This document shows, piece after piece, positions 1 to 47,808 of a DNA stretch of 49,114 nucleotides (the stretch's first letter is position 1; each line of letters begins with the position of its first letter). This stretch comes from Candidatus Moranbacteria bacterium CG_4_9_14_3_um_filter_44_28. Lineage in GTDB: Bacteria; Patescibacteriota; Minisyncoccia; Moranbacterales; UBA11712. Position numbers and translations under genes: made by a program. Location of the stretch: contig PFVO01000008.1 in the NCBI GenBank assembly GCA_002790655.1, positions 1 through 49,114 on the forward strand, written 5' to 3'. Below the pieces are notes generated by a model. The model ran no database searches and was not told the DNA's origin. It saw only the letters and a list, made by a program, of their open reading frames with translations.

Positions 1-323
1 GCATTCCAGTTTTTTTGAACATCCTCGCCGCTGTGTTCGTGTTCCATATTCCCAAGGTTCGACCTTGGGGAACCCGAAGGTCGAACCTTGGAATTCAACG
101 CTGTTTCGGTTTCAATTATCTTATATCCGTTATCTCTGATTACCCGCTTCACATTTTCCTTGTCCAAAACATCCGCATCATATTCAACATAGGCTTTTTT
201 GGTCGCAAAATTCACGGACGCGTCCAAAATGCCTTTGGTTTTCAAAAGTTCCTTTTCGTTCGAGACGGCACAACTGGCACAGGACATCCCGGAGATATTT
301 AAAATAATTTTTGCGTGTTTCAT
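1..323 (-). CDS. copA: Heavy-metal (copper) translocating P-type ATPase, N-terminal part; runs off the window
   Basis: Not in ORF track. Read manually from ATG at 323: MKHAKIILNISGMSCASCAVSNEKELLKTKGILDASVNFATKKAYVEYD, an HMA domain with GMxCxxC, followed by a His-containing linker. ATPase body is not visible. Confidence 0.75.
   Translation of the reverse strand, partial: MKHAKIILNISGMSCASCAVSNEKELLKTKGILDASVNFATKKAYVEYDADVLDKENVKRVIRDNGYKIIETETALNSKVRPSGSPRSNLGNMEHEHSGEDVQKNWN
52..91. repeat. 15-bp perfect inverted repeat inside the copA coding region
   Basis: CCAAGGTTCGACCTT (52-66) and AAGGTCGAACCTTGG (77-91). Confidence 0.9.
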
Positions 324-392
324 AAAAATAACCTAAATCACAGCCGAGTTTGAGTTTGCGAAAAACTAATGTTCTTCAAAAAATTTATTTTC

Positions 393-1550
393 CTATTCCA
401 CCAAAAATTTACCGCGTACCATTCCCATTCCGCAACTGAATGGTATTTCGCGCGTGCCGGTTGGCGTAAAACTGATTATATTTTCCCCGCTATTGATGTT
501 TTTGGCAATACCAAGGATCGGGATAATAATTTTATTCGTGCAACCGCTTACCTGAACGCCTTTTACAATCCATTTTACCGGAACACCTTTCTTGATTTTC
601 AAAGTGCTCGGTTCGAATCCCCGGCTTGTGACGGACATTTCTATTTTTTGCTCATTTTGATTTGAAGAAACGTCTGAATTATCTTTTTCCGCCGCCCGGT
701 CAATGCTTGCGATATTACTGATCACGCTATTTTTGACTCCTTTGAGCGCCAGGGCCGATTTAAAAGTAAAAATTGCAAAAACCAAAATTAAAATCCCGGC
801 AACTTTCTGAAATACCCCGAACTTTTTATCCCGCGCCCAGGTGGCGGCAATCCCCAAAACCAAAAGAACCGGCATTGTTCCCAGAGCGAAAAGAAACAAA
901 CTCAAAGCTCCTCTTGAGAAACTCCCCGAAACCAAAGCCAGAACCTGCATGCTCTGAGTGAAGCCGCAGGGAAGAAAAAAAGTGATTGCTCCTAAAAGAA
1001 ACGGGGCGGCCTGATGTTGGGATTCTTCCAGCCTTATCAGTTTTTTCGTCATGCTGGGAAAAAACCTGATCCCCGTTTCGGAAAGCGAAGGCGTAATTCC
1101 CAGAATAGAAAGACCTAGCTAGCCCATTATTGCCGCAACGACGATTGTATAAACCGAAACAAAATTTCCGCTGATATTGATTGTTCCGCCAATCACACCC
1201 AGCAATCCGCCGAGCAGGAAAAAAGTGATTAGTCTCCCAATGTGAAAAAGAAAATTCGGCTTGACGGTTCGGCTGAAAAAATCTTTTTCGCCGCTCCTGT
1301 ACTTTTCCGAAAAAACGATTACCACTCCTTCGACAACGGCGAGACACGAGAAAACTGACGCGACAAGGCCTACAAGAAAAGAAATACCAAGCGTAAGATT
1401 TGACCCTCGAAAATTGAATTTATCCAGCCAGCCCGCGTTCTGAAATTCCCGGTACAAAAAAAGAACGACTGTTATAATTAAAACCGCGAAAACCCAGCTT
1501 GATAAGCTGTTTTTTGAATTTTCTCCTGTTTTACGATCCGGAAACTGCAT
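393..1550 (-). pseudogene. DsbD_2/TauE-like membrane protein with C-terminal cupredoxin-like domain, split by in-frame TAG at 1119-1121
   Basis: ORFs 1119..1550 and 393..1052 share a frame. Motifs SCLAVV, FHIGR, FFLPCG and C-terminal FSCGMGM. Confidence 0.8.
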
Positions 1551-1608
1551 TGAGAAAACTTACAGGTTGCTTTAGATAATACGCCGGCAAAAAAGAAATA
1601 TTTGCACG

Positions 1609-1638
1609 AAAAAGACCGGGCATTGGCCCGGCCTTTTT
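1609..1638. terminator. Intrinsic terminator after the serine protease gene
   Basis: AAAAAGACCGGGC-ATTG-GCCCGGCCTTTTT. Confidence 0.7.
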
Positions 1639-5062: not shown

Positions 5063-5097
5063 AAAAAATACGTACTCAAATACGTACGTATTTTTTA
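5063..5097. terminator. Possible bidirectional terminator between convergent genes
   Basis: AAAAAATACGTAC-TCAAATAC-GTACGTATTTTTT. Confidence 0.55.
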
Positions 5098-5100
5098 TCT

Positions 5101-5122
5101 CCCCCGCCGAAACCCGCGGGGG
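5101..5122. repeat. GC-rich quasi-palindromic repeat, copy 1 of 3
   Basis: CCCCCGCCGAAACCCGCGGGGG. Confidence 0.8.
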
Positions 5123-5886: not shown

Positions 5887-5920
5887 AATTTTTTTGAGAA
5901 TATTTTAATTGCTTATAATT

Positions 5921-5943
5921 CCCCCGCCGAAATCCGCGGAGGA
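5921..5943. repeat. GC-rich repeat, copy 2 of 3
   Basis: CCCCCGCCGAAATCCGCGGAGGA. Confidence 0.8.
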
Positions 5944-6978: not shown

Positions 6979-6985
6979 CCCCGGC

Positions 6986-7013
6986 TCCCCCCGCCGTCGA
7001 AATCCGCGGAGGA
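6986..7013. repeat. GC-rich repeat, copy 3 of 3
   Basis: CCCCCCGCCGTCGAAATCCGCGGAGGA. Confidence 0.75.
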
Positions 7014-8930: not shown

Positions 8931-8967
8931 ACTAGATACCAAATACTTAATACTCTATACTTTATAC

Positions 8968-9816
8968 ATGCTATTCAACACATATTCTTGGCAGCATTTG
9001 CCCCAAAATTTAAATCCAATTGCTTTCAACATCGGCCAAATTGAAATTTCCTGGTACGGGATTATGTACCTGGTTGCTTTTGCGATTGTTTATTTTTTGG
9101 TCCGCTACCGGATCCGGACGGAGAAATTGGGAATTTCGTTTGAAACCGTTCAAGACTTTTTCCCATGGGGAATTGCCGGATTATTATTAGGCGCAAGACT
9201 CGGGGATGTTTTCATTTATGACTGGGGTTATTTCCAAAATCATCTCTCCCAAATTTTTCTGCCGTTTGACATTTACAACCACTGGCAATATATCGGGATT
9301 TATGGAATGTCGTATTTTGGAGGATTGATTGGCCTCGCGATCGCTTTTTATATTTTTTGTAAAGTAAAAAAAATAAGCTTTTTAGAATTTAGCGACCTTT
9401 TCGCCCCTGCCATTCCGCTTGCATTCACTTTCGGCCGGATTGGAAATTTTATTAACGGAGAACTTTGGGGACGCGTGACGAAAGTTTCTTGGGGAATTTA
9501 TTTTCCGGCGGATTTTTCCGGACAGCTCCGACATCCTTCGCAGATTTATGAAGCATTCCTCGAAGGAATTTTTCTTTTCGTAATTTTATGGAGCATTAGA
9601 AAAATAAAATTTCCGGTCGGATATCTTACTGCGTTTTATCTTATCGGCTACGGCCTCGTCCGCTTCACCAGCGAATTTTTCCGTGAGCCAGACAACGGGT
9701 GGTTTGTTTTTTCGCTTACGATTGGGCAGTGGTTTTCGGTAGCAATAATGATAATGGGAATAATAATCATTTTCCCAAAAAGAAAGAGTAGCCAAAATAA
9801 TGGCCAATCCGCTTGA
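8968..9816 (+). CDS. lgt: Prolipoprotein diacylglyceryl transferase
   Basis: WYGIMY, GARLG, GRIGNFINGELWGR, RHPSQIYEA. Start moved to the ATG at 8968. Confidence 0.95.
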   Translation: MLFNTYSWQHLPQNLNPIAFNIGQIEISWYGIMYLVAFAIVYFLVRYRIRTEKLGISFETVQDFFPWGIAGLLLGARLGDVFIYDWGYFQNHLSQIFLPFDIYNHWQYIGIYGMSYFGGLIGLAIAFYIFCKVKKISFLEFSDLFAPAIPLAFTFGRIGNFINGELWGRVTKVSWGIYFPADFSGQLRHPSQIYEAFLEGIFLFVILWSIRKIKFPVGYLTAFYLIGYGLVRFTSEFFREPDNGWFVFSLTIGQWFSVAIMIMGIIIIFPKRKSSQNNGQSA

Positions 9817-9875
9817 TAATTTTCTGTTTTCCCCCTACTATTTTATTAGATATTCTTACGTCAATTCCAACCTCT

Positions 9876-11204
9876 ATGATCCCAAGATATACAAAGAAAG
9901 AAATGAGCCAAATTTGGAGTAATGAAGCCAAATTTCACAATTGGGCAAGAGTTGAGGTAGCCGTTCTTCAAGCGAAAGTTAATCTCGGCTTGCTCGACAT
10001 CACCATTCCAGATAAATTGGCGGAAAAAATTAAAATTGATCCTACCGAAATCGACCGGATAGAAAAAGAAATTACTAGACATGATATGGCCGCGTTTCTC
10101 TTGCATACTTCTCCTCAACTTCCCGAAGAGTTGCGTCCGTTTTGGCATGCCGGAATGACGTCATACGACATAGAGGATACGGCTTTGAGCCTGCAGCTTA
10201 TAGCAAGCGTAAAACAGATTATTGCAAGAATAAAAAAAGTAAAAGAAGTTCTAAGGATCAAAGCGCTTAAGTATAAATACACTCCGCAAATTGGGCGAAC
10301 GCACGGAGTGCACGCTGAGCCAATCACATTCGGGGTGAAGTTAGCAAAATGGTATGATGAATTTTCCCGCCATGAGAAGAGAATGGCAAAGCTGCTTGAA
10401 CAAGTTTCTGTCGGGAAAATATCCGGAGCAGTTGGGATGTACACGCTCGACCCAAAAATCGAAGAGGAAGCGTGTAAATTGCTAGGCCTTAAGCCGGTGA
10501 TGGCAACACAAATAGTTGCTCGCGATATCATCGCTGAATACATTTCGACATTGGCGATCATTGGAGGGACACTGGAAAAAATCGCGGTTACAATTCGGAC
10601 ACTTCAGCGAACAGAGATTCTCGAAATGCAAGAATATTTTGATATGAAAAAACAAAAGGGTTCATCTGCCATGCCTCACAAAAGAAATCCGTGGGGACAT
10701 GAGAATGTTTCTGGAATGGCGAACGTCATGCGAGGCTATGCTGGAATGGCACTCGCAACAATTTCCAGCTGGGATGAGCGAGATCTTTCAAATTCAGGAC
10801 AAGAGAGGATTTATATTCCAGATTCTTCGATTCTTCTTGACTATATGTTCGCCCGCCTGACCGGTGAGATGGAAAAATGGATTATCTATCCCAAAAAAAT
10901 GAAAGATAATTTGAATCTTACGAAAGGATTAGTATTTTCACAGAATGTGCAGACGCTACTTGCTGAAAAGAGCAGTCTGCCCAGAGAAGTTGCCTACAAG
11001 ATTGTGCAGGATATTGCCCAGGCCTGCTGGGAAAACAAGAAGGATTTTTTTAAAGCCCTCAACAAAAACAAGAAAGTAAGAAAATACTTAAGTGAAAAGG
11101 AGCTTAAGAAATGTTTTGATCTCGACGCCAAGCTCAAGTACGTGGATTATATTTTCAAAAAAGTATTTGGAACAAATATCCCGAGCGGAGTCGAGGGATC
11201 TTAA
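9876..11204 (+). CDS. purB: Adenylosuccinate lyase
   Basis: MIPRY, TRHD, GRTHGVHAEP, GSSAMPHKRNP. Confidence 0.96.
   Translation: MIPRYTKKEMSQIWSNEAKFHNWARVEVAVLQAKVNLGLLDITIPDKLAEKIKIDPTEIDRIEKEITRHDMAAFLLHTSPQLPEELRPFWHAGMTSYDIEDTALSLQLIASVKQIIARIKKVKEVLRIKALKYKYTPQIGRTHGVHAEPITFGVKLAKWYDEFSRHEKRMAKLLEQVSVGKISGAVGMYTLDPKIEEEACKLLGLKPVMATQIVARDIIAEYISTLAIIGGTLEKIAVTIRTLQRTEILEMQEYFDMKKQKGSSAMPHKRNPWGHENVSGMANVMRGYAGMALATISSWDERDLSNSGQERIYIPDSSILLDYMFARLTGEMEKWIIYPKKMKDNLNLTKGLVFSQNVQTLLAEKSSLPREVAYKIVQDIAQACWENKKDFFKALNKNKKVRKYLSEKELKKCFDLDAKLKYVDYIFKKVFGTNIPSGVEGS
11178..11199. repeat. Short palindromic element forming the last codons of purB
   Basis: ATCCCGAGCGGAGTCGAGGGAT, read as IPSGVEG. 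Confidence 0.5.
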
Positions 11205-30739: not shown

Positions 30740-30824
30740 CGGAAGGGGAGGGAGTCGAACCCTCGATACCTTGCGGTATACCCGCTTTCCAAGCGAGCGC
30801 ACTAGGCCACTATGCGACCCTTCC
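30740..30824 (-). tRNA. tRNA-Ser(GGA), CCA not encoded
   Basis: GGAAGGG acceptor stem, anticodon arm CTCGC-TTGGAAA-GCGGG, long variable arm, GGTTCGACT T-loop. Confidence 0.95.
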
Positions 30825-30831
30825 AGACTAT

Positions 30832-30858
30832 AAAGCGAGGCTTAGTTGCCTCGCTTTT
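30832..30858. terminator. Terminator-like hairpin after ppsA
   Basis: AAAGCGAGGC-TTAGTT-GCCTCGCTTT. Confidence 0.65.
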
Positions 30859-30887
30859 AATCTAGCAGAAACATGGTAAAATTCAAA

Positions 30888-33401: not shown

Positions 33402-33425
33402 TTATTTTTATTTTCAAATTTTGAA

Positions 33426-34868
33426 CTACTTTATCTCTTCTATCTTAACGAGACTCATATGCTCCCGTTTGACATGCGGGCGGCCGGCAACAATTACCAC
33501 CCGGTCACCTTTCTTAAACACTTTGTTTTTTTTGAGAGTTTCAATCGAACGATCGAGTAGCTCATCCAGATCCCGGCAGTCAGGGAGGATGAAGCTCTCA
33601 ACGCCCCAGACAAGGGTGAGTTGATTGCTTGTTTTCTCGTTGTTGGTCATCACGAACACTTCCTGCTCCGGCCGGTGGCGGGTAATCATCCGGGCTGTAA
33701 ATCCGCTGACGCTCGCCACTACAATCGCTTTTGCGCCGCTGTCTTTCAAAAGTTCGTGGGCCGATTGGGCCACCGCCGCCGAAACCGAAGACGTTTGGTC
33801 TCCCAAAAATCCGTGTCCGAGATCATCAAAAGGCGATTCTTCCGTTTTTTCGATAATTTGACGCATCGTCCGAACCGCTTCAACCGGATATTTTCCGCTG
33901 GCCGTCTCGCCGGAAAGCATAACCGCGTCGGCATGGTCAACCACGGCGTTGGCGACATCCGTCACTTCAGCCCGCGTCGGCCGGGGATTCCTGATCATCG
34001 AGTCAAGCATTTGAGTGGCTACAATGGCCGGCTTTCCCGCCCGAAGGCTCTTGGCTGTCATTTCTTTTTGCAAAATCGGAATCTCCTCCTGCGGCATTTC
34101 AATCCCAAGGTCGCCCCGGGCCACCATGATCGCGTCCGCCGCCCGGAGAATCTCGTCAAAATTTTTCACTGCTTCCCTCCGTTCAATTTTGGCAATCACC
34201 TGCGGCAGCCGGCCGTGGTTTTTTGTTTTTTTCTTGATCAATTTTTTGAGATTTCCAATTTCTCCGGCTGATCGCACAAAAGACATTGCCACAAAATCAA
34301 CATCTTGAGACAGAATAAAATCCAAAACTTCTTTGTCTTTTTGTGTTAGCGCTCCGATTTTTGCCGAGATTCCGGGAATATTCACACCTTTTTTCGGCTT
34401 GATAATTCCTTCGTTCATCGCTTCGCACTTCACGAACTTCCCGTTTTTGCCGATAACTTTCAGTTTGATCAATCCGTCTTCAATCAGAATCTCGTTGCCG
34501 AGTTTTGCCAGCCTAACTGCTTCCGGAAGGTCCAAAAAAATAATTTTTCCTGCTTCCCCCAATCTCCCCAATTTCCCCAATCTGCCTAATCCGGCTCCAA
34601 CCCGAACAATTTCTCCTCTTTTTACTTTTTGATCCTTGCCATTTGCTATCCTTATCCTCGGCCCCTGGAGATCCGCCATTATCCCAATCGGCCGTTTCAT
34701 CTTCTTCCCGATTTTCCTAATCTCTCTTATCACCCTCCCGTGCCAGGCAAAATCAGAGTGCGAAAAATTGAGCCGGGCGACGTTCGTCCCATCTTCAATT
34801 ATCTTCGTCAAAACTTTTCTTCCCTCCGACGCCGGGCCGATAGTGGCGATAATTTTGGTACGTTTCAT
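33426..34868 (-). CDS. pyk: Pyruvate kinase
   Basis: KRTKIIATIGPAS, ARLNFSH, IAKIE, MVARGDLG, ATQMLDSM, MLSGETA. Confidence 0.97.
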   Translation of the reverse strand: MKRTKIIATIGPASEGRKVLTKIIEDGTNVARLNFSHSDFAWHGRVIREIRKIGKKMKRPIGIMADLQGPRIRIANGKDQKVKRGEIVRVGAGLGRLGKLGRLGEAGKIIFLDLPEAVRLAKLGNEILIEDGLIKLKVIGKNGKFVKCEAMNEGIIKPKKGVNIPGISAKIGALTQKDKEVLDFILSQDVDFVAMSFVRSAGEIGNLKKLIKKKTKNHGRLPQVIAKIERREAVKNFDEILRAADAIMVARGDLGIEMPQEEIPILQKEMTAKSLRAGKPAIVATQMLDSMIRNPRPTRAEVTDVANAVVDHADAVMLSGETASGKYPVEAVRTMRQIIEKTEESPFDDLGHGFLGDQTSSVSAAVAQSAHELLKDSGAKAIVVASVSGFTARMITRHRPEQEVFVMTNNEKTSNQLTLVWGVESFILPDCRDLDELLDRSIETLKKNKVFKKGDRVVIVAGRPHVKREHMSLVKIEEIK

Positions 34869-34943
34869 GATCTTATTGTAAACCAAAACGAGCAAACTTA
34901 AAAGAGCTTGCTCGCCTTACATTTCAAGAAATTGCCGGCTGTT

Positions 34944-35294
34944 CTAACTTATCAGCTTGAAACCGCCAATCACCGGAAGCTCCTTCATTTCGCCTTTGGC
35001 CGCACTCACGATTCCCAAAATCATAAACACAAGTCCGGCAATGGCTACCAGCGGCATAAGGAAAATCCCGATTACAACGAACGAGAGAACCGCTGAAACC
35101 GTCCATCCGATAAATCCAAAGAGAAGAAGATCCAACTGCTGATTGGCATGAAATTTGGCAAAGGGGCTGTTTTTCGCATCCGTCACTAAAGGGATAAAAA
35201 ACAAAATCGGAATAATATAGCCAATAATAGCAAAAGCTTTGTTTTTTTCCGCGTCTTGCGGATCCGCTTTTTGAGTTTGGTTTTCTTCGGTCAT
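34944..35294 (-). CDS. Membrane protein (DUF4870-like)
   Basis: FAKFHANQ, three TM helices, C-terminal LPVIG. Confidence 0.8.
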   Translation of the reverse strand: MTEENQTQKADPQDAEKNKAFAIIGYIIPILFFIPLVTDAKNSPFAKFHANQQLDLLLFGFIGWTVSAVLSFVVIGIFLMPLVAIAGLVFMILGIVSAAKGEMKELPVIGGFKLIS

Positions 35295-35373
35295 AAATTC
35301 ACCTCGCTTTCTGTTTTAAAGATTTTTAATTTATTAGCAAACTTCCAAGTTCGACTTGATTTCCCTTACTATA

Positions 35374-35817
35374 TTAAAGCATACTTTTTAATTCTCGCAA
35401 AATATCGTCCGGGATTGGGTCTCTTTTCGGACTTATTCCCGAATACCGCCACGTACTGATCAAACGAATCTTTTGCTGCGTAAAAGTTTTTCTTTTTTCA
35501 GCCAAAGACTGATTCCCGCCTGCTTTGATTTGCAAAGCAATTCGGGCAGGTGCCTCTGGCATGACATTTTTACTTTTTCCTTTTATCTGGTACATTGCCC
35601 AAATTTCACTCGACCATACTCTTTTTCCATTTTTGGTATGAGTCGAGGCGGGTTGCATAACCGCGATGGTATTTGCCGCCACTCCCTCCTCCACTCTCTG
35701 CGGATTATTCACCAAGCGCAAAACTCTCTGAGCCGTCAATCCATAATGCCTCATCTTCCCAATGGCGTGCTGTGTCCACTCATATTTTTCCGTATTTTTG
35801 GGAATTTTAAATCGCAT
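35374..35817 (-). CDS. Hypothetical protein (possible DUF4258/BrnT-like fold) carrying a repeat insertion
   Basis: WTQHA..KM..YGL...V...NP; ISTWRY. Confidence 0.6.
   Translation of the reverse strand: MRFKIPKNTEKYEWTQHAIGKMRHYGLTAQRVLRLVNNPQRVEEGVAANTIAVMQPASTHTKNGKRVWSSEIWAMYQIKGKSKNVMPEAPARIALQIKAGGNQSLAEKRKTFTQQKIRLISTWRYSGISPKRDPIPDDILRELKSML
35500..35560 (-). repeat. 61-bp composite palindromic repeat, copy 2
   Basis: Reverse complement of 33318-33378 with 5 substitutions. Confidence 0.9.
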
Positions 35818-35853
35818 ATAAAAAACTTTCTAAAGTGTAGCCTTAGGAAATAA

Positions 35854-36741
35854 TTACACATCCATTCCCCGCAACCTCTTTACTCTCTCCGCGATCGGCG
35901 GGTGGGTTTGGAAGAGATTTGATATTTTTTTGCCTTTGAAAGGATTAGCGATAAAGAGATGCGCTGTTGCTCGGTTGGCGTGGCGCATCGGCGTCGGGTC
36001 GGCGGAGATTTTTTCGAGCGCGCCGGCAAGGCCTTCCGGATAACGGGTTAACAACGCTCCGTCGGCGTCGGCCAGAAATTCGCGCTTTCGGGAAATAGCC
36101 AGTTGCACAAGCATCGCCGCCAGCGGCGCCAAAATCGATAAAATTATTCCCGCAATGAATAAAATTAATCCCAGTTGTCCGCGATCCCGGTCACCATCTC
36201 CGCCTCCAAACCACGCCCAGCGGCGAAACCAATCAGCCATAAGAGCCACAAACCCGACTAAAACTACGATAATAGTCGAAAGCAGTATGTCTCGATTGCC
36301 GATATGGGAAAGTTCGTGGGCGATAACGCCTTCCAATTCTTTCTTCTCCAATTTTTCCGCCAGACCCGTTGTAACAGCAATCACCGCATGTTCCGGATCA
36401 CGCCCGGTTGCAAAGGCGTTCGGAGACGGATCATTGATGACGTAAATTTTCGGCACCGGTAGTCCGGCCGTGATGCAAAGATTCTCGACAATGTGATAGA
36501 TTTCCTTCGCGTTTTCGTGGGTCACTTCCTTCGCCCCGCTCATAGCAAGAACAATTTTGTCGCTCCACCAGTAAGAAGCAAAGCTCATGAGCGTGCTGAA
36601 AATAACCGCGACGACCAAAATCACCGAATTGTTCATCGCCTGCGCGAAAACATATCCAACACCAATGACAAAGATTAAAAAACCTGTGATATAGATCCAG
36701 GTGAGTCGGGTATTTTTATCGGCTTGGGTATATATTGTCAT
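35854..36741 (-). CDS. htpX: M48 zinc metalloprotease HtpX
   Basis: PNAFATG, AHELSH, SRKREFLAD, THPP. Confidence 0.95.
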   Translation of the reverse strand: MTIYTQADKNTRLTWIYITGFLIFVIGVGYVFAQAMNNSVILVVAVIFSTLMSFASYWWSDKIVLAMSGAKEVTHENAKEIYHIVENLCITAGLPVPKIYVINDPSPNAFATGRDPEHAVIAVTTGLAEKLEKKELEGVIAHELSHIGNRDILLSTIIVVLVGFVALMADWFRRWAWFGGGDGDRDRGQLGLILFIAGIILSILAPLAAMLVQLAISRKREFLADADGALLTRYPEGLAGALEKISADPTPMRHANRATAHLFIANPFKGKKISNLFQTHPPIAERVKRLRGMDV

Positions 36742-36749
36742 GATATTGC

Positions 36750-36841
36750 AATTCGTAAATTGTAATCAGTAATTTGGATTTACATAAACCAAAACCGAAG
36801 GATTTTCTATCCCAATTACAAATTACCAATTACTAATTACA
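36750..36841. repeat. Two opposed heptamer arrays, intergenic
   Basis: AATTCGT AAATTGT AATCAGT AATTTGG ... AATTACA AATTACC AATTACT AATTACA. Confidence 0.75.
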
Positions 36842-36845
36842 AGTT

Positions 36846-37394
36846 TTAGAATTCCACTTTCACGGCCTCTTTAGCTTCACCTTCCGCTTCAAAAAATTCC
36901 CGGGCAGTAAAATTCAGCATTCCCGCAAAGATGTTGTTCGGGAAAACCTGAATTTTTATATTGAAGTCGCGAACGTTTCCGTTGTAGAATCGGCGCGATG
37001 CCTGAATTTTGTCTTCAGTGTCAGCCAGTTCTCCCTGAAGCTCCAAAAAATTCTGATTTGCCTTGAGATCCGGATAAGCTTCCGCCACCGCAAACAAACT
37101 TTTGAGAGTCTGCGAAAGCATATTTTCGGCTTGCGCCTTGTCGCCGGCCGATTGGGCCGCCATCGCCCGGGTTCGAGCTTCGGTCACTTTTTCAAAAACT
37201 TCTTTTTCGTGCTGGGCATAGCCTTTCACCGTATTTACAAGATTCGGGATGAGGTCATACCGCCTCTTGAGCTGGACGTCAATGTCACTCCAAGCCTCAT
37301 CCACCCGGTTTTTGAGTCGGATAAGCCCGTTATAGATCGCAACCGCCCAAATGACGAGCACGGCAACTATTCCCAATATAATCCACATAACCAT
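36846..37394 (-). CDS. lemA: LemA family protein
   Basis: AWSDIDVQLKRRYDLIPNLV, AYPDLKANQNF. Confidence 0.96.
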   Translation of the reverse strand: MVMWIILGIVAVLVIWAVAIYNGLIRLKNRVDEAWSDIDVQLKRRYDLIPNLVNTVKGYAQHEKEVFEKVTEARTRAMAAQSAGDKAQAENMLSQTLKSLFAVAEAYPDLKANQNFLELQGELADTEDKIQASRRFYNGNVRDFNIKIQVFPNNIFAGMLNFTAREFFEAEGEAKEAVKVEF

Positions 37395-37436
37395 ATGTTT
37401 GTTAGTTAATGCTTATTTTTTAATGTCAAAATAACG

Positions 37437-38252
37437 TTACTGATTAATGTCTCTCTCCATCGCCGCCCGCAACATCACCCTTGCAAATGAAACATTTTCT
37501 TTCACTCTGTCTCCCTTGTTACCCAGATAATCCAGTGAAGAATTTTTAACAAGCGACAAGTCCACCCTATTGGAATACGCCCCCGCCACTTTTCCTGATT
37601 CAACGCCGGCAATTTCTAGTATTTCTTTTCTATAAAAAAATCCGATTTGAAAGAGCAGGAAAAATAGTAGCACCAAAGACGCGCCAAAAGCAAATTTTGG
37701 AAGAAATGGCAATTTCCCGACCGGCTCCGGCGCAAAACTCGGCGAAAATCTTCTCGCTTCATTTCGGACCTCAAATTCTTTTATTGTTTCCTGATTTTTC
37801 TTTTCAGTCTTCTGAATCTTTACCTGCACTATTTTTCTTAAATCAACTGTCGGCAGTCTTCTCCCAATCCGCAGAGAAGTAAAATCTGTCTTTCGCATAT
37901 CTGCTTTCCGTTCAATTTGGTTTGTTTGGTTTGCCTGATTCACCGCAAATGCTTTTTGCAATCCGGGTTCTTGTTTCAGTTCTGTTTTTTCCACCGCAAT
38001 TTTTTCTTTCTCGACAGGTTTGATTTCAGCTTCCAATATTTTTGCTTCCGCTTTTTTCGCCGCAATATCTTTTTCAAACTCCCAAAACCACTCCCATATT
38101 GTATACCAGCGTTTGCCAATTCGGATTGAACCGAGATCACCTCGCCTCGCCAAAAGACCCAAATACTCTTGGGCATATTTTTTTTCTTTGGCAACTTGAG
38201 AGAGCAAGACAAATTTTTTTCTGAAGTCCTCCTGCATAGCTATATAATACAA
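37437..38252 (-). CDS. Hypothetical protein: N-terminal excisionase/HTH-like domain plus a single TM helix
   Basis: YAQEYLGLLARRGDLGSIRIGKRWY; TM near the C-terminus. Confidence 0.65.
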   Translation of the reverse strand: MYYIAMQEDFRKKFVLLSQVAKEKKYAQEYLGLLARRGDLGSIRIGKRWYTIWEWFWEFEKDIAAKKAEAKILEAEIKPVEKEKIAVEKTELKQEPGLQKAFAVNQANQTNQIERKADMRKTDFTSLRIGRRLPTVDLRKIVQVKIQKTEKKNQETIKEFEVRNEARRFSPSFAPEPVGKLPFLPKFAFGASLVLLFFLLFQIGFFYRKEILEIAGVESGKVAGAYSNRVDLSLVKNSSLDYLGNKGDRVKENVSFARVMLRAAMERDINQ

Positions 38253-38373
38253 TAGGAACGCATTTGATGTCTACAACAAATATCGGGTATTTATTCCCGC
38301 ACTATATAACTATTATGCATTATACAATTTTTACTTATTTCCATTTTCGCAAAAGTTATTGTAAAATATAGCT

Positions 38374-38820
38374 ATGGAGACTTTCAAAGACTATTTTATC
38401 CTTATTGTTCCCCTCGCCGTAGGAGGATTTACTCTTACTCTTAAGTTTGTCATCTTTTCCGTTAAACACGGGGTCAAGTGGGAATATTTGCTAACCCACG
38501 GCCACATGCCAAGTTTCCATACGGCCTTCACTATCTCGACGTTAACCTCGATCGGCTACTACGCCGGCACTGCCACTCCAATCTTTGCTCTTGCCGCCAT
38601 TTTTGCCATAGTCATTATCGATGACGCCATCAGACTTCGAGTTTACTTGGGTGATCAGGGAAGATATCTAAACAAACTGGTTGAGGAATTGCCAATTAAC
38701 AAGAAAAAATTCCCTCGCCTCAAAGAGAGAATCGGCCACCGCATGAGCGAAGTAATTGTCGGCGGAATAATAGGCTTTGGACTTACCCTAATTCTCGCAA
38801 AACTTCTCGAATCACTTTAG
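38374..38820 (+). CDS. Divergent PAP2 family (DUF212-like) protein
   Basis: GHMPSFHTA, DA..LR..G.Q, LKERIGH..EV..G. Confidence 0.85.
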   Translation: METFKDYFILIVPLAVGGFTLTLKFVIFSVKHGVKWEYLLTHGHMPSFHTAFTISTLTSIGYYAGTATPIFALAAIFAIVIIDDAIRLRVYLGDQGRYLNKLVEELPINKKKFPRLKERIGHRMSEVIVGGIIGFGLTLILAKLLESL

Positions 38821-40129
38821 GGTCGTTCCAAGGAATTCTTTTTTTGCCGATTGCCATCGTTTCTTCCGCTCCTTTTCCGGTGACAATGACAATATCTCCG
38901 CGCTTTGCAACTTGCAGAGCTTTTTTTATCGCTTCGCGGCGATCCAATATACGCCAGGCGTTCATATTTTCTTTCCGGTATTTAGAGACTCCGTCAAAAA
39001 CTTCGTCAATAATTTTCTGTGGATCCTCATTATACGGATCTTCATTTGTTACGATACAATAATCCGCATGCCGCGCCACAATCTCTCCCATAATCGGACG
39101 CTTGCCTCGATCTCTTTCCCCGCACGCCCCAAACACAGCAATAATTTTCGACTCCCCCATTTTCCTTATTTCCCCAATCTCCCCGATTAATCGATACAAT
39201 TTCTCCAGCGAATCCGGCGTCACCGCGTAATCAACAATTATTTCAAGTCCGCGATCATTTTCGATGCGTTCCATTCTCCCCGGAATTTTTTTTATCTCTT
39301 CTAGCGATTCGGAAATTTTTTCGAGCGGAATTCCCTGTGAAAGCCCCACGCAAGTCGCCGCCAGAGCATTTTCGATATTAAATTCGCCAGGCAAATGTAA
39401 AGTGAATTGAGAATTGAGAATTGTGAATTGTGAATGATCGATATTCAGCTTAATATTTTCAGCTACAACTGTTTTAAAATTTGAAATTTGAACTTGATTT
39501 GAAATTTGAAATTTGAAATTTGAAATTTTTAAGGCATAGCCGTAAATTTTCCTCGCTGGATACTTCAGAAAATCTTCCGCATTCTCCATATTGAGATTGA
39601 CTACTGCTACCCCATTTTTATTTTTCGCTATCATCGCAAACAATTTTTCTTTCGCCTTCCGGTAATTTTCCATCGTCTTATGGTAATCCATGTGCTCCCG
39701 CGTCACATTCGTGATGACCACCACATTAAAATCCACGCCCCAAACCCGATTTTGATCCAGCGAATGCGATGTCACTTCGATCACTGCATAATCACAGCCG
39801 GCTCGAACCGCCTCTCGCAAATGTTTTTGCAACCGAAAACTTGAAAGGGTCGTGAATTTTGTATCGTTTATCCATTCTTTCTCGCCAATCTTAAAATTAA
39901 TCGTCGAAGCGACCGCGATTTTGCTTGCCCTGTGGCCATCAGGCTTTACGGGGCGCCCCGCTTCTTCCAAGATCTTCGCAATCATCTGCACTGTCGTCGT
40001 TTTTCCGTTCGTCCCCGTTACTCCGATAACCTTCAATTTTCTCGACGGAAACCCATACCAAACATTCGCCAAGACGGCTTGGAAGAGATGGTAGATATTT
40101 TTGATGGATTGGGGGATAACTTTCTTCAT
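38783..40129 (-). CDS. murE: UDP-MurNAc-tripeptide synthetase (MurE-like Mur ligase)
   Basis: GVTGTNGKTTT, EVTSH, EHMDYH, PGRME, VDYA, GERDRGKR, GKGAE. Confidence 0.9.
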   Translation of the reverse strand: MKKVIPQSIKNIYHLFQAVLANVWYGFPSRKLKVIGVTGTNGKTTTVQMIAKILEEAGRPVKPDGHRASKIAVASTINFKIGEKEWINDTKFTTLSSFRLQKHLREAVRAGCDYAVIEVTSHSLDQNRVWGVDFNVVVITNVTREHMDYHKTMENYRKAKEKLFAMIAKNKNGVAVVNLNMENAEDFLKYPARKIYGYALKISNFKFQISNQVQISNFKTVVAENIKLNIDHSQFTILNSQFTLHLPGEFNIENALAATCVGLSQGIPLEKISESLEEIKKIPGRMERIENDRGLEIIVDYAVTPDSLEKLYRLIGEIGEIRKMGESKIIAVFGACGERDRGKRPIMGEIVARHADYCIVTNEDPYNEDPQKIIDEVFDGVSKYRKENMNAWRILDRREAIKKALQVAKRGDIVIVTGKGAEETMAIGKKRIPWNDPKVIREVLRELG

Positions 40130-40164
40130 TTTTCTAGTGAGCTAAGCCCGACTTAGCTCAGTCA

Positions 40165-41223
40165 TTATAAGAGTCTTTTTATTTTCTGCAATATTTTATA
40201 CAAGCTGTATTTTCCCGGATTTAAAACTATATCCCAGCACCCCGGAAACCGAATCGGCTCAACTTCCGGCGCAAAGCCGGTTTTGAATTTTGTGATTCCT
40301 TCCCGACTACTCATGTTATGTGTTGCGTGTTGCATGTTGCGTGATATTTTCACTCCTCCAAAATCATACCTCACGCATCCGGCTTTTTTTGCATCCAAGA
40401 TTTGCTGCCACTGGAGAAGATACGGTGCCATTACATCGCGGTAAGCATAATCCGACGCCCCGTGCATGTAGGTCGCTACTTTTCCGAAAAAAGAAACGAT
40501 GTTTGCGGATATAACTTTCCCCTCATATTCTGCCACGTATAATTTCAAAACGTCGTCCGAAATCATCTCAAACATTTTCCGATAATACTCATCCGGATGC
40601 GGCGTTATTTTATCGCGCCTCGCCGTAATTTTTATTAACCTCAAAAACTCACCAAAATACTTTATGCTTTCTACTTGATACTTGATACTTTTTACTTTCA
40701 CTCCTCGCTTTTCCGCCAATCTTATATTGTATCTCGTCTTCTGTTTCATCTGCGCCAAAATTTCCCCTTCGTTTCCCGAAATATCAACCACCAATATCTC
40801 CCCTGACTGAACATCAACCGGCGATTTTTTGATCTTTATTCCGCTCGGTAAATTTTCTTTAATTAATTTCAGATCCTCCTCGCTGTTCGGTTCAACCCGA
40901 ATCCATCCAATTCTATTCTTCCGAGCTAAAATAAACAAACCGTCCAAAAACTTTTTTATTTTTGATATGTATATTTGCTTTTTGCTATTTACTATTTTAT
41001 TTATTATCGGGCCGCGCGGAATATAAAAATAATCACCGACTATCGGCAATGTATGAGTGATGATGTTCGCATATGCCACTGGTTCGCCGTCGTCATCACT
41101 TGCTGAAACGTCATGCGTTTTTCTACCATAACTCTCCTGAAACTTCCACCAGTGTTCCGACTGCAAAAAACCGCCGTCAGGAGAATTGATTTGAATAAAG
41201 TTATCAGTCTGATTGTTTGCCAT
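40165..41223 (-). CDS. FemABX-family peptidoglycan peptidyltransferase
   Basis: FLQS..W, YIPRGP, KQKTRYNIRLAEKRGV, YDFGG, KFKTGF. Confidence 0.88.
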   Translation of the reverse strand: MANNQTDNFIQINSPDGGFLQSEHWWKFQESYGRKTHDVSASDDDGEPVAYANIITHTLPIVGDYFYIPRGPIINKIVNSKKQIYISKIKKFLDGLFILARKNRIGWIRVEPNSEEDLKLIKENLPSGIKIKKSPVDVQSGEILVVDISGNEGEILAQMKQKTRYNIRLAEKRGVKVKSIKYQVESIKYFGEFLRLIKITARRDKITPHPDEYYRKMFEMISDDVLKLYVAEYEGKVISANIVSFFGKVATYMHGASDYAYRDVMAPYLLQWQQILDAKKAGCVRYDFGGVKISRNMQHATHNMSSREGITKFKTGFAPEVEPIRFPGCWDIVLNPGKYSLYKILQKIKRLL

Positions 41224-41230
41224 GTATGAA

Positions 41231-41299
41231 TTGTCATCCCTGCGAAAGCAGGGATCCAGAAAATTAATTGCTAGATTCCCGCTTTCGCGGGAATGACAA
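41231..41299. repeat. REP-like doublet of opposed palindromes
   Basis: TTGTCATCCCTGCGAAAGCAGGGATCCAG ... CTAGATTCCCGCTTTCGCGGGAATGACAA. Confidence 0.88.
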
Positions 41300-41302
41300 G
41301 TA

Positions 41303-43335: not shown

Positions 43336-43474
43336 TTTATAGATATTTCTCAATTTAGTGTCAAGTATTTTGTCTAATTTAAAAGAATAATTGGCTTTTA
43401 TAACAGCAGTAATGCGATTATTGATTGTAATTGTTGACAATTTTATTGACACTAAAATATAAGCGTGCTATCCT
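43336..43474. promoter_or_regulatory. Divergent sigma70 promoters sharing a mirrored 21-bp motif
   Basis: Minus: TTGACA(43364)-17-TATAAA. Plus: TTGACA(43446)-17-TGnTATCCT. Confidence 0.7.
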
Positions 43475-43476
43475 AA

Positions 43477-43557
43477 CCTCACCCTAACCCTCTCCTTATC
43501 AAGGAGAGGGAAATCGTCGCCTCCTTCTCCTTAACAAGGAGAAGGCTGGGATGAGGT
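43477..43557. repeat. Palindromic doublet in the 5' UTR of the TrmB-like gene
   Basis: CCTCACCCTAACCCTCTCCTTATCAAGGAGAGGG ... CCTTCTCCTTAACAAGGAGAAGGCTGGGATGAGG. Confidence 0.85.
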
Positions 43558-43565
43558 GAAAACTT

Positions 43566-45765: not shown

Positions 45766-45787
45766 GTTGTTTGCCTAACGTTCGATG

Positions 45788-46900
45788 TTAGGGTTGCAGT
45801 ACCCACTTCAGCGCCTGCCCCGGCTCGAGAACCTCAACCCAGATTTGCCCGGGAACAAACTTCACTTCTTCACCCTTGTCATCGTACATAAAAAGTTTCG
45901 AAGCCCATTTGGACTTGTCCTTTTTCCAGCGGCCTTTCATTTCTTTTCCGTTGAAATAATAATAGGCATCGCCCTCACTCACCGAGTCAAATTGGGGATC
46001 GCCGATCTGAACATTATTATACTGACCTTCGATTTGCTCAGAAGAAGCGATTACAATTGCAATGTTTTTTGGCGCCAGTCTCTTTCCATTGTTCGCGTCA
46101 ATGTCAGCCACCTTGTTCCAGCTTCGAAGATAGGTATTGGTCGCTTTGTCATAATCATAATCTGCCGCGTACGGCCCGGCAAAACCAACCCGCAAATGCC
46201 CTCCGCTCGGCCGCTGATCCACGGGAGCTTCAGCTTGGTGAGGATAACCCGAAAATTTGTTTTCCATTCGATAGTTTCTCGCCTTGGCACATTCCAAAAG
46301 CTTGTCGAATCTGGCAAACCCATTATCCGGCGCCGGAACTCCCGCTTTTCGAAAACCACATTCGGGGGCCTTGTTTCCAAAACTGCCGTTGAGATCAAGA
46401 TTGTCAATCACTTTTTTGTTCAAAATATCTCCGGCAAAATGAGATCCTCCCCAATGGGCAAAGATCGCGTCCCACCCGGCGGCCAGCGCAATATAATCAT
46501 GACGGGAAGAGCGAATAGAGCCCACTTCGGACGGATTTCCGCAAACATAAACGGCCATAAGCCGCGTGATACTGGCAGTAATCGCCGGCATTTCAAGAAC
46601 GAGATCGGCGTCTGAAAACCCGCTGTCGGGCCGCACCGAAAGATCAGCCGCTTCCATCACCGCAATCGGCCGGCGGTTCCAGTTCGTACAGGTAAGACTC
46701 GTAAAGGGACTCACTTCTCCGGTATTCAGCGGCGCGCCCATTTCCACTTCTCCCTTCATTGAGTTGAGGTTCAGAGGATTAACCTTTTTCCTGTACCAGC
46801 CAAAATAAAATACCAGCCCCGCCATAATGACCAGAATAACAATGATAATTATCACTTTAGTTTTCTTCTCCGTAATCTGAAATCTTTCGATTAAGTTCAT
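45788..46900 (-). CDS. DUF3048-like membrane-anchored protein
   Basis: N-terminal TM; RP.SG...AD.V.E, TRLMA, GSIRSSR, PGQIWVE. Confidence 0.8.
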   Translation of the reverse strand: MNLIERFQITEKKTKVIIIIVILVIMAGLVFYFGWYRKKVNPLNLNSMKGEVEMGAPLNTGEVSPFTSLTCTNWNRRPIAVMEAADLSVRPDSGFSDADLVLEMPAITASITRLMAVYVCGNPSEVGSIRSSRHDYIALAAGWDAIFAHWGGSHFAGDILNKKVIDNLDLNGSFGNKAPECGFRKAGVPAPDNGFARFDKLLECAKARNYRMENKFSGYPHQAEAPVDQRPSGGHLRVGFAGPYAADYDYDKATNTYLRSWNKVADIDANNGKRLAPKNIAIVIASSEQIEGQYNNVQIGDPQFDSVSEGDAYYYFNGKEMKGRWKKDKSKWASKLFMYDDKGEEVKFVPGQIWVEVLEPGQALKWVLQP

Positions 46901-46917
46901 ATTTTTTATTTTAATAA

Positions 46918-47808
46918 TTACTTCTGGCACCGGGGGCAAAAGAAGGTCCCGCGTTGCCCCATTTTTTCTCTCTGAATAATTGTACCACACCGCGGACATT
47001 TCTTGCCAGCCTGACGGTAGACTTTCATAACTTCCTGAAATCTTCCCGGCGCGCCAGCTGTGTCGCGGTAGTCGGAATCTGACGTCCCGCGAAGTTTTAT
47101 CGCTTTTTCAAGAACTTTTTTGATAGCTATGAATAATTTTCGCCTCTCTTCTTTTTTTACTTTATCCGCCGGGCGGCTCGGCAAAATTCCGGCTTCAAAC
47201 AAAATTTCGCTGATATAAATATTTCCGATTCCGGCAATTTTACTCTGGTCCATCAAGAGTAGCTTGATTTTCGTTTTTCGCTTGTCCAGAATCTCGTCAA
47301 ATTTTTCAAAAGTGAAATCGGCGTTCATTGCGTCCACTCCTAACTTCCCGATTTCCCCAATCTCCCCGATTTTATCCGAATCCACCAACATTATTTTTCC
47401 AAATTTTCGAAGATCCGAAAACTCCAACGTTCTCCCGGATTTGAGGTAAAAAATATGATGAATATATTGATTGACTTTTTCAGAAAAATAATCACCCCCC
47501 CTTTTGTTCCCCCCCTTGGCAAGGGGGGGAGGTGGAGGGGGGATCCTGTAATTTTTCGGCTTAACGAGCAAATGTCCCGTCATTTTGAGATGAATATAAA
47601 TCGTTCTCCCACCCGATAAATTCAAAAAGATATTTTTTCCAATTCTTTTCGCTCCCAAAATTTCTCTATCCCTTATCTCTTTCTCAAATCTCTCGAGCGG
47701 TATTTTCACCGACTTTTTCCAGTCACTCCAAAAACCGGTGATTATATCACCCTTGATTTTTCCGTTCAAATCCGAAATGATTGTTTGAACTTCGGGTAAT
47801 TCCGGCAT
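46918..47808 (-). CDS. mutM: Formamidopyrimidine-DNA glycosylase
   Basis: MPELPEV, HLKMTG, GIGNIY..E, CPRC..CPRCQ. Confidence 0.96.
   Translation of the reverse strand: MPELPEVQTIISDLNGKIKGDIITGFWSDWKKSVKIPLERFEKEIRDREILGAKRIGKNIFLNLSGGRTIYIHLKMTGHLLVKPKNYRIPPPPPPLAKGGNKRGGDYFSEKVNQYIHHIFYLKSGRTLEFSDLRKFGKIMLVDSDKIGEIGEIGKLGVDAMNADFTFEKFDEILDKRKTKIKLLLMDQSKIAGIGNIYISEILFEAGILPSRPADKVKKEERRKLFIAIKKVLEKAIKLRGTSDSDYRDTAGAPGRFQEVMKVYRQAGKKCPRCGTIIQREKMGQRGTFFCPRCQK
47491..47545. repeat. C/G-tract palindromic element in frame inside mutM
   Basis: ATCACCCCCCC..TCCCCCCCTTGGCAAGGGGGGGA..GGGGGGAT, read as IPPPPPPLAKGGNKRGGD. Confidence 0.8.

Follow-up and report, generated by a model that had tools for sequence, protein, structure and literature searches.

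We analyzed a stretch of 49,114 nucleotides (hereafter the window) of Candidatus Moranbacteria bacterium CG_4_9_14_3_um_filter_44_28. The window corresponds to bases 1-49,114 of contig PFVO01000008.1 (C34 in our numbering of contigs, in which the genome has 794,432 bases in 48 contigs and a G+C content of about 44%). Three distinct classes of repeats were found in it: tandem arrays of heptanucleotide units, arrays of a 9-nt unit GGGGARATY, and GC-rich palindromic mini-elements, which form several families. On balance, we think that two or three independent DNA-level processes of this Moranbacteria-like lineage write these short repeats and that selection filters them.

A first-pass annotation, made from the letters of the window, had proposed that several unrelated repeat families enter conserved genes in frame, that they also have intergenic copies, and that they are footprints of small nuclease cassettes which act as a source of new protein loops. 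Our analysis bears out the first two points. The nuclease point holds as an association for the palindromes, which accompany DUF559 and GIY-YIG genes, but no link to nuclease genes was found for the 7-nt and 9-nt arrays. As for the last point, it holds as a description, since the loops do exist; a benefit from them would be hypothetical. At the gathering threshold the sole Rfam match in the window was a tRNA-Ser, and the repeats thus represent no described RNA family.

Heptamer arrays in the genome and in conserved genes

Tandem arrays were called with Tandem Repeats Finder (TRF), and the chance level was taken from three third-order Markov simulations. At a score of at least 30, the genome held 231 arrays of period 7, compared with 25, 25, and 27 in the simulations. 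At a score of at least 40, the values were 111 against 0, 0, and 1. The peak at period 7 was sharp (231 arrays, against 41 at period 6 and 68 at period 8). That is, 7-nt tandem units lie far above chance genome-wide, which is the mark of long simple-sequence repeats. The number of strong arrays (score of at least 40) per 100 kb was 14 in this genome, 23.6 in the same family (254 kb, 15 loci), 3.2 in other families of the order (277 kb), and 4.4 in the phylum (389 kb, 20 genomes), and period 7 was the most frequent period in every one of these sets. The heptamer excess is lineage-wide.

With a crude calling of open reading frames (ORFs), which gave 813 ORFs and a coding share of 90%, 95 of the 231 arrays were intergenic, 89 lay fully in ORFs, and 47 ran across ORF ends; the array density was about 9-fold greater in the non-coding 10% of the genome. 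The usual array was 30-35 nt long, and 91 distinct heptamer units were counted. It might be supposed that the arrays are functional cis-elements, namely sites for DNA- or RNA-binding proteins or translational signals, and that the copies in genes are tolerated spill-over. The intergenic density and the narrow length speak for this, as does the position of composite TACGAAT palindromes, which stop about 10 nt before ATG codons; a role of this kind was also proposed for the TAACTGA repeats of Beggiatoaceae (PMC4679880). However, a single factor could not recognize 91 units, and arrays that lie in genes are retained at the same protein loops from one genus to another. Moreover, the arrays outside ORFs showed no preference for gene starts or stops, because they were as near to stops (62 of 130 distances of at most 15 nt) as to starts (51 of 151). 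We regard cis-elements as an unlikely explanation of the arrays.

Among the 224 arrays with a consensus unit of exactly 7 nt, 56 made up 28 adjacent inverted pairs, compared with 1 direct pair; none of these pairs was in the window. We also observed about ten copies of a palindrome of about 110 nt that consists of four TACGAAT boxes, a loop, and four ATTCGTA boxes. Examples are C23:2565-2680, C23:13445-13545, C44:1310-1405, and C48:4915-5010, and it is several of these copies that end just upstream of an ATG.

The window contains 11 period-7 arrays (Table 1). Seven are in genes (one in lgt, one in dnaG, two in murE, and three in a FemAB-family gene, hereafter the Fem gene) and four are intergenic. 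Arrays of 7, 9, and about 10 nt had been listed in the first-pass annotation; the 7-nt and 9-nt arrays were recovered, and the arrays of about 10 nt were merely two-copy TRF rows that we found unconvincing.

The two murE arrays differ in their relation to the protein. Array A is an insert of about 12-13 amino acids compared with the Thermotoga MurE 4BUB, and distant orthologs are also at least 12 residues shorter. Array B, which encodes HSQFTILNSQFTLH, supplants a conserved beta-hairpin with the length unchanged; orthologs free of the array have two strands, GSEFSINGQNFKLNF, at this place. A reading of A and B as an inverted pair was rejected by inspection, because the units are not reverse complements of each other. 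In the 30 relatives examined, about 125 kb surrounding murE contained 66 heptamer arrays. The segment between VVNL and LPGxFN could be anchored in 25 orthologs (L017, L018, L023, L024, and L028 were left out, as the anchor failed). Within this segment of 59-86 amino acids, 18 of the 25 orthologs have at least one heptamer array and 14 have two, with more than 10 units in all. The units vary by genus and include AAATTTC, AAAGTTC, AAACGCA, AAACTCA, CAATTCT, ATTCAAA, ATACAAA, AATACCA, and others. Despite the differing units, the peptide pattern x-x-F/Y-x-I-x-N is retained at site B across genera.

This beta-strand pattern is what would be expected if protein-level selection for 7-residue repeats or for low-complexity linkers had made the periodicity. 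However, the period is 7 bases and not only 21, and the arrays are commonest in non-coding DNA. In addition, shuffling of codons within ORFs removed just about half of the arrays with a score of at least 40 (53-57 of the 111 survived), and the remainder were outside ORFs, which fits with roughly half of the strong arrays being located there. We think it very unlikely that selection on the protein is the origin of the period.

The loop of DnaG between GLLVEK and YDRFR ranges from 8 to 31 amino acids across 22 orthologs and is short in the distant ones, and IPNTKYQIPDTK-type arrays are present in this loop in several genera. The three Fem arrays are all located in segments that vary in length and sequence in the four orthologs compared (4/4). 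That is, murE array A, the dnaG array, and the Fem arrays lie in variable loops.

Arrays in genes could also be phase-variation switches (contingency loci) like that of E. coli K1 neuO. A unit that is not a multiple of 3 shifts the frame with each unit gained or lost, and in murE and the Fem gene, which have two or three arrays, one array could make up for a shift caused by another. On the other hand, dnaG and murE are single-copy and essential, and no array insertion or deletion was seen in contigs of four runs from 2015-2017, although this last evidence is weak. We think such switches very unlikely.

These contigs also bear on whether the repeats exist as assembled. The murE-fem stretch is contained nearly letter for letter in 24 aquifer or groundwater runs. 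When the Logan contigs from the four runs were aligned to positions 25700-41300, there were 7 differing positions and 0 insertions or deletions, and the sites in dnaG, ppsA, pyk, ORF 35374, murE (array B), and the Fem gene were each bridged by single contigs. Some contigs are interrupted (at 39503-39523, 28020-28047, and 41233-41262), with peaks of depth at these places, and this could be taken as a sign of an assembly or binning artefact. However, gap-free single contigs from the four runs cross the six sites, and independent assemblies of about 30 relatives have arrays at the same loops. The repeats are real DNA and not assembly errors, because single contigs bridge the sites without gaps; an artefact is hardly credible.

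The 9-nt GGGGARATY arrays occur at 25 loci genome-wide, of which 20 are in called ORFs and three or four between genes; a locus that the ORF calls had placed in intergenic DNA in fact belongs to mutM. On the sense strand are 18 of the 20 ORF-borne arrays, and their frames are split 8, 8, and 2. In the window, the pyk array adds about 3 amino acids compared with three of five orthologs. The length at the mutM array equals that in 45 of 46 usable relatives, and the remaining one (L098) is one residue shorter. Judged from the sequences, the 9-nt arrays are not simple inserts but existing loops rewritten with 0 to 4 extra residues, because the mutM length is unchanged and only about 3 residues in pyk and about 4 in murE are concerned. 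The copies in murE and mutM agree at 25 of their 27 bases, and short-patch copying or parallel homogenization may account for this likeness. We considered GGGGARATY as a DNA-uptake sequence and rejected it, as 92 single hits against about 20 expected by a hand estimate are far too few. Eight of the 25 loci are within one 8.6-kb stretch (C18:4000-12600), in adjoining genes.

Palindromic mini-elements and small nuclease genes

GC-rich hairpins with a perfect stem of at least 9 bp numbered 72 in the genome, compared with 10 in each of two simulations. Of these strong hairpins, 35 are in ORFs and 32 in the intergenic 10% of the genome. Nine palindromes of the window had been listed in the first-pass annotation. 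Seven of them (52, 5101, 23318, 28023, 33318, 41231, and 43477) were confirmed, the one at 11178 proved to be imperfect, and the one at 4950 has a stem of 4 bp only and does not stand. Those at 52, 11178, and 33318 are in genes as had been claimed, but those at 5101, 23318, 28023, 41231, and 43477 are intergenic, with the hairpin at 28023 upstream of the cutA start. Intrinsic terminators were considered and rejected for the listed hairpins, because none of them has at least 6 T in the next 10 nt; among intergenic hairpins with a stem of at least 8 bp, 13 of 52 do. The family of the hairpin at 52-91 has about 7 loci in the genome (blastn).

The alignment with orthologs that had been suggested showed that the inserts in mutM, purB, ppsA, and ORF 35374 are missing from the orthologs compared. 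The mutM hairpin, which had not been listed separately before, adds about 9 amino acids that are missing in all 46 aligned relatives, and in other relatives the same MutM loop holds other inserts (PPKADQP..., NFQFPISNFQ...). At the C-terminus of purB, 8 amino acids are added, and three close orthologs end 8 codons earlier. The core of this palindrome, CGAGCGNAGTCGAG, has 23 sites in the genome at no more than 2 mismatches, compared with 3 for the reversed control, and two CGAGCGNAGTCGAG sites flank the second GIY-YIG gene (contig C14). The purB gene itself was detected in just 4 of 18 relatives.

In ppsA, the insert of 22 residues is missing in all four orthologs with an intact N-terminus. The repeat near 33318 is, over 61 nt, 92% complementary to 35500-35560, where a second copy in inverted orientation lies in ORF 35374-35817. 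The insert in that ORF is missing in three of three orthologs, and one genome (G004) has a different 22-amino-acid insert elsewhere in the gene. The members of another dispersed family, related to the core of this 66-nt element, measure about 110-150 nt and have a variable loop of about 70 nt between the conserved arms GCCTGCCCGAAATGCTTTGA ... TTCAAAGCAGGCGGGC. We observed it at C20:5787-5893, C2:12941-13047, C41:26138-26245, and C36:13639-, and also on C8, C6, C35, and C30; four of the copies are near-identical.

The claim that each copy adds an odd peptide is thus correct for the mutM hairpin, the purB C-terminus, ppsA, ORF 35374, murE array A, the dnaG array, and the Fem arrays. It fails for the mutM 9-nt array, for murE array B, and for the 21-nt repeat of purB at 10194-10249, which is a conserved helix and no insert, and in pyk the gain is only about 3 amino acids.

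The genome contains 2 DUF559 genes, 3 small GIY-YIG genes, and 3 Y1_Tnp (RAYT-like) genes. Hairpins with one arm of pyrimidines only and the other of purines only (pyrimidine/purine hairpins) were found no more than 260 nt from all ten DUF559 genes examined (2 here and 8 in 5 of 24 relatives), and on both sides in nine of the ten. The flanks of these genes, 5.15 kb in total, contain 29 such hairpins, compared with 7 in the other 26.8 kb of the loci. Only 14 pyrimidine/purine hairpins are present in this genome: six belong to the flanks of the two DUF559 genes, and the window has three, namely the two of the module at 43468-43558 and the mutM hairpin. At two loci of genome G020 (L168 and L169), DUF559 domains and flanking hairpins are inside long open frames of 1306 and 421 amino acids, as if a whole nuclease cassette had been fused in frame into a larger gene.

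The perfect inverted repeat that bounds the GIY-YIG gene of the window is one of 11 pairs in the genome with the ends TCCCTCACCA...TGGTGAGGGA and arms of 16-21 nt. The pairs enclose the GIY-YIG gene (one pair), a tRNA-Cys (one pair), and 30-100 nt of unrelated sequence (nine pairs), and four of them are in frame in a class-I aminoacyl-tRNA synthetase, DnaE, topoisomerase I (TopA), and GatB. The tRNA-Cys(GCA)-like sequence is at C14:31100-31243, enclosed by GIY-YIG-type inverted repeats (ATCCCGCACCAAAATT ... AATTTTGGTGCGGGAC). We examined 30 small GIY-YIG loci, that is, 29 in relatives and that of the window. Flanking inverted repeats of 18-23 nt were present at nine of them, while the maximum in 105 shifted controls was 13 nt. 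One relative (G009) has the cassette at the same locus, with a protein 83% identical and the same inverted repeat. In three genomes of another genus (G001, G011, and G014), the site is empty, and the shared flanks CAGTTATCGAATTAGGCGTA and AAAGTCGTTCGCCTAAGT enclose a hairpin of 33-35 nt where the cassette would be. Of the 25 genomes searched, 24 have several small GIY-YIG genes, from 2 to 14 each.

The region 20560-21045, upstream of a zinc-ribbon-like ORF at 21043-21321, is conserved across genera (L111, L204, and L203 in G001, G011, and G014). Segments TTAGGCG and CGCCTAA pair in it around an apical hairpin that varies, and it is exactly this apical position that the GIY-YIG cassette occupies. 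The region may be a structured leader RNA.

The three Y1_Tnp genes matched above the Pfam cut-off. The one on C20 is flanked by GTAGAGACGC..GCGTCTCTAC hairpins, and those on C38 and C40 have repeats of their own. These latter two genes hold their own flanking repeat within the coding sequence at the same relative position (C38:12014-12032 and C40:310-335). None of the hairpins in the window matches the RAYT-linked hairpins of C20, C38, or C40; they match the families linked to DUF559 and GIY-YIG. From this association in sequence we infer that the nucleases may move or target the hairpins.

It could be argued further that all families, including the tandem arrays, are footprints of small nuclease cassettes. 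The palindrome families do flank DUF559, GIY-YIG, and RAYT-like genes, and GC hairpins occur within heptamer arrays at the murE loops of some relatives (L006, L010, L015, and L016). Yet none of the 11 heptamer arrays in the window adjoins a nuclease gene, and cut-and-repair would not predict 4 to 8 exact tandem units. The number of units, the presence of different units at orthologous sites, and the excess across the phylum also argue against it. We think that slippage with concerted evolution explains the arrays better than nuclease footprints, because the period is sharp, the units are many, orthologous sites have different units, and the spread is lineage-wide. An origin of every family from nucleases is therefore quite improbable.

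Features of the window

The positions of the repeats and of the genes with Pfam support are listed in Table 1. By Pfam, the names purB, dnaG, ppsA, pyk, murE, FemABX, mutM, and GIY-YIG given in the first-pass annotation are supported. What had been called copA is an HMA-domain ORF at 3-323(-), truncated at the contig end. The name dfx could not be upheld, since a desulfoferrodoxin match was found nowhere; the repeat copy at 35500-35560 falls in ORF 35374-35817(-), which has no Pfam family.

Table 1. Repeats of the window and the Pfam-supported genes around them
Feature	Position	Strand	Remarks
GC-rich double hairpin, CCAAGGTTCGACCTTGG type	52-91	.	14-bp stem; linker of the HMA ORF 3-323(-), just past the HMA domain
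Intergenic heptamer arrays	3252, 22097, 24442, 36814		called with TRF; the one at 24442 is described below
Hairpin CCCCCGC..GCGGGGG	5093-5122	.	intergenic; more copies at 5913-5942 and 6983-7012; stem without T-run
lgt heptamer array, AATACTT x3.7	8942-8967	+	in N-terminal extension; Lgt domain begins at residue 53
purB	9813-11204	+	Pfam-supported gene
Imperfect palindrome ATCCCGAGCGGAGTCGAGGGATCT	11178-11201	+	last 8 codons of purB
GIY-YIG gene	20557-20889	+	Pfam-supported gene
Perfect inverted repeat ATCCCTCACCACTTTTACTTT bounding the GIY-YIG gene	20614-20634 and 20883-20903	+	21/21 bases
Intergenic heptamer array, TGTGTTA/GTGTTGC	24442-24473	.	81% identical over 32 nt to the Fem-gene array at 40314-40345
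dnaG	25775-27586	-	Pfam-supported gene
dnaG heptamer array, AAAATAC x6 (sense strand)	26978-27019	-	15-residue peptide in the DnaG loop between GLLVEK and YDRFR
ppsA	30888-33401	-	Pfam-supported gene
66-nt palindromic element	33315-33380	-	22 residues directly after the ppsA start; RNA fold -34.6 kcal/mol
pyk	33426-34895	-	Pfam-supported gene
pyk 9-nt array, GGGGARATY family	34557-34591	-	peptide GRLGKLGRLGEAG, in a pyruvate kinase loop that varies
Inverted second copy of the 66-nt element	35500-35560	-	+22 residues in conserved hypothetical ORF 35374-35817
murE	38783-40129	-	Pfam-supported gene
murE 9-nt array	39162-39188	-	LIGEIGEIRK; segment varies by about 4 residues
murE array B, CAATTCA/CAATTCT x4.6	39404-39435	-	encodes HSQFTILNSQFTLH
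murE array A, AAATTTC x8.4	39473-39528	-	encodes KISNFKFQISNQVQISNFK
FemAB-family gene (Fem gene)	40165-41223	-	Pfam-supported gene
Fem-gene array 3, GCAACAC (sense strand)	40320-40343	-	NMQHATHNM
Fem-gene array 2, AAAGTAT x6	40657-40698	-	KSIKYQVESIKY
Fem-gene array 1	40959-40997 (period-7 core 40972-40997)	-	NSKKQIYISKIKK
Intergenic hairpin pair	41236-41294	.	ATCCCTGC GAAA GCAGGGAT and ATTCCCGC TTTC GCGGGAAT; outer TGTCAT/ATGACA
Solo double-hairpin module	43468-43558	.	CCCTCTCCTT..AAGGAGAGGG and CCTTCTCCT..AGGAGAAGG; hairpins at 43488 and 43523; same module flanks the DUF559 gene on C31
mutM	46918-47808	-	Pfam-supported gene
mutM 9-nt array	47345-47371	-	encodes KIGEIGEIGKLG; orthologs have KIGEIKEIKSLG
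Pyrimidine/purine-stem hairpin TCCCCCCCTT GGC AAGGGGGGGA	47508-47530	-	encodes PPPPPPLAKGG in mutM

Two further observations concern other genes of the window. The halves of a DsbD_2 (cytochrome c biogenesis) membrane protein are divided between ORFs 1119-1550 and 393-1052; the gene is either split or frameshifted near 1052-1119. The genes at 22187-23188 and 23438-24403 are tandem paralogs without a significant Pfam family; they have a common stretch of 300 nt at 72% identity, and the pair is kept in relatives.

Proposed origin of the repeats and comparison with known systems

The explanation that we favor, that is, independent processes with selection as a filter, can be set out as follows. 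Process A would be tandem duplication of a slippage type, in steps of 7 bases and less often of 9, which would produce 4 to 8 units from local sequence. Repeated expansion, contraction, and homogenization would then keep the periodicity while the unit drifts. We infer this mechanism; under it, different units would occur at the same MurE, DnaG, or FemX loop across genera because homogenized arrays drift. Because three heptamers make 21 bases, translation of an array in whichever frame gives a peptide with a repeat of 7 residues, and in genes only units that are free of stop codons on the sense strand would persist. According to PMC4679880, heptanucleotides are the most abundant class of long simple-sequence repeats in most prokaryotes, and polymerase slippage with a 7-nt contact has been proposed for them (Mrazek 2007, cited there). 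No MutS_V domain was found in 40 of 41 genomes of the order, this one included, while the control was detected in 11 of 14 model genomes; this absence is permissive for slippage products.

Process B would concern the GC-rich palindromic families of 23 to about 100 nt, which may spread as non-autonomous partners or targets of small selfish nucleases, the candidate genes being DUF559, YhbQ-type GIY-YIG, and RAYT-like HUH genes. Solo copies would settle in intergenic DNA, and in genes if their length is 3n and they are stop-free. The association with nuclease genes is clear from the genomes, and mobilization by them is a plausible step beyond it. For both processes, selection would remove the copies that break the frame or the fold, and the survivors would be those in tolerant loops, at protein ends, and in one beta-hairpin. 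In-frame survival is thus most simply a filter, by which only 3n-long, stop-free copies in tolerant places remain. The added peptides are most likely neutral passengers and not adaptations.

Several observations weigh against this explanation. TACGAAT arrays occur 21 times, mostly within the inverted-array palindromes of about 110 nt, and part of the heptamer load is dispersed elements and not the result of local slippage, because units recur at many loci and in inverted pairs. TRF array lengths modulo 3 (0/1/2) were 17/7/16 in ORFs and 16/14/10 in intergenic DNA; that is, a comparison of 3n and non-3n lengths, which had been suggested as a check, gave no clear contrast with TRF boundaries. 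The length differences among orthologous loops are only sometimes multiples of 7 residues. No variation in unit number was seen in the contigs of the four runs, where rare variants would be hidden and which may come from one population, and this is weak evidence against instability of the arrays. Absence of MutS was rejected as the cause of the high density: MutS_V went undetected in 40 of the 41 genomes whatever their array density, and its absence therefore cannot explain why the family has 5 to 7 times more arrays. As to the palindromes, no target-site duplication was seen for any element, the empty GIY-YIG sites are all from one genus, and cutting or movement of hairpins by the nucleases is hypothetical.

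A wider reading can also be drawn, although we think it less likely than not. In it, DUF559 and YhbQ-type GIY-YIG genes, each with a cognate module, would make up in Moranbacteria and their relatives an undescribed class of mobile DNA whose solo copies disperse across the genome and regularly become fixed in frame in essential enzymes (DnaE, TopA, aminoacyl-tRNA synthetase, GatB, MutM, and PpsA). A separate 7-base process would rewrite and re-homogenize parts of essential proteins, even re-encoding the structural MurE beta-hairpin as a heptamer array, and the two would jointly be a main source of lineage-specific inserts in the candidate phyla radiation (CPR).

Proteins of the CPR (Patescibacteria) are known for odd lineage-specific inserts, and the genomes are very small; repeat DNA in essential genes is therefore unexpected. 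The present findings offer a concrete DNA-level origin for many of these inserts and show a single protein loop that was rewritten repeatedly among related genera. The nuclease-hairpin pairs (DUF559 with pyrimidine/purine hairpins, and GIY-YIG with TCCCTCACCA repeats) could constitute a miniature mobile element of a new kind. In annotation work, the repeats account for contig breaks, false N- or C-terminal extensions, and low-complexity segments in conserved genes.

Among known systems, the Rickettsia palindromic elements (RPE), which Ogata et al. in 2000 reportedly described as dispersed palindromes in frame in conserved protein genes, had been named as the closest analogue. RPE are about 100-150 bp in size, with tens of copies per family. 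The analogy fits the palindromic elements of the window, and best the 66-nt element, which is present in both orientations, in frame, in two genes, and is missing from orthologs. The likeness is one of kind and not of homology: both are palindromic, in frame, in either orientation, absent from orthologs, without a protein of their own, and also present between genes. Unlike RPE, the elements here are 23 to about 100 nt (up to 104) with 2 to about 23 copies per family, and so fall short of the RPE size and copy number (2 full 66-nt copies, 11 inverted-repeat pairs, and 14 pyrimidine/purine hairpins). In addition, the host is a free-living or episymbiotic member of the CPR, and several families bound or flank a small nuclease gene.

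Repetitive extragenic palindromes (REP) are located outside genes and have hundreds of copies. In contrast, copies here are few, and some lie inside genes, even inside the RAYT-like ones; for other families the partner is DUF559 or GIY-YIG instead of an HUH gene. The common feature is a link between short imperfect palindromes and a single HUH (Y1) gene that has these hairpins on its flanks, as in the REP/REPIN and RAYT pairs, a subject of PMC3116915.

The neuO heptamer tract is in a coding region and phase-variable, and with a number of units divisible by 3 it is translated into repeats of 7 residues. The arrays here resemble it as heptamer repeats in coding regions but differ in being in housekeeping genes and in showing no variation of unit number in the contigs. 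They also resemble the prokaryotic heptanucleotide repeats, cyanobacterial short tandemly repeated repetitive sequences, and the Beggiatoaceae TAACTGA repeats, which are tandem 7-nt units with few copies, mostly intergenic, and with some ORF copies at protein ends (PMC4679880 for the Beggiatoaceae repeats). Unlike in those systems, there is here no single dominant unit among the 91; arrays lie within the catalytic domains of enzymes that are essential, orthologous loops in different genera retain them while the unit changes, and one array supplants a conserved beta-hairpin.

The small nuclease genes are like free-standing homing endonuclease genes (GIY-YIG; Vsr/DUF559 clade) in being small, multi-copy, patchy, and present or absent at one locus, and the DUF559 clade contains a known homing endonuclease (PMC3424549). 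Unlike those genes, they are outside introns and inteins and are bounded by inverted repeats or hairpins with solo copies, in the manner of a miniature inverted-repeat transposable element (MITE) with its partner; their nuclease activity is predicted. Terminal inverted repeats TCCCTCACCA..TGGTGAGGGA common to short copies and a gene-bearing copy likewise recall a MITE with an autonomous partner, but no direct repeat was found at any inspected copy, and GIY-YIG is a nuclease fold and not a known transposase.

The kinds of components are thus already known, namely heptamer simple repeats, RPE-like in-frame palindromes, REP/RAYT pairs, and free-standing nuclease genes. A literature search of partial coverage yielded no paper on heptamer arrays or in-frame palindromic elements in the CPR, or on hairpins that flank DUF559 genes. 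Within the reach of this search, three features appear to be new: the density that these repeats together attain in a 0.8-Mb CPR genome; the presence of heptamer arrays in matching loops of essential enzymes from genus to genus with turnover of the unit, one of them re-encoding a structural hairpin; and DUF559 or GIY-YIG genes paired with their own families of hairpins or inverted repeats that have in-frame solo copies in essential genes.

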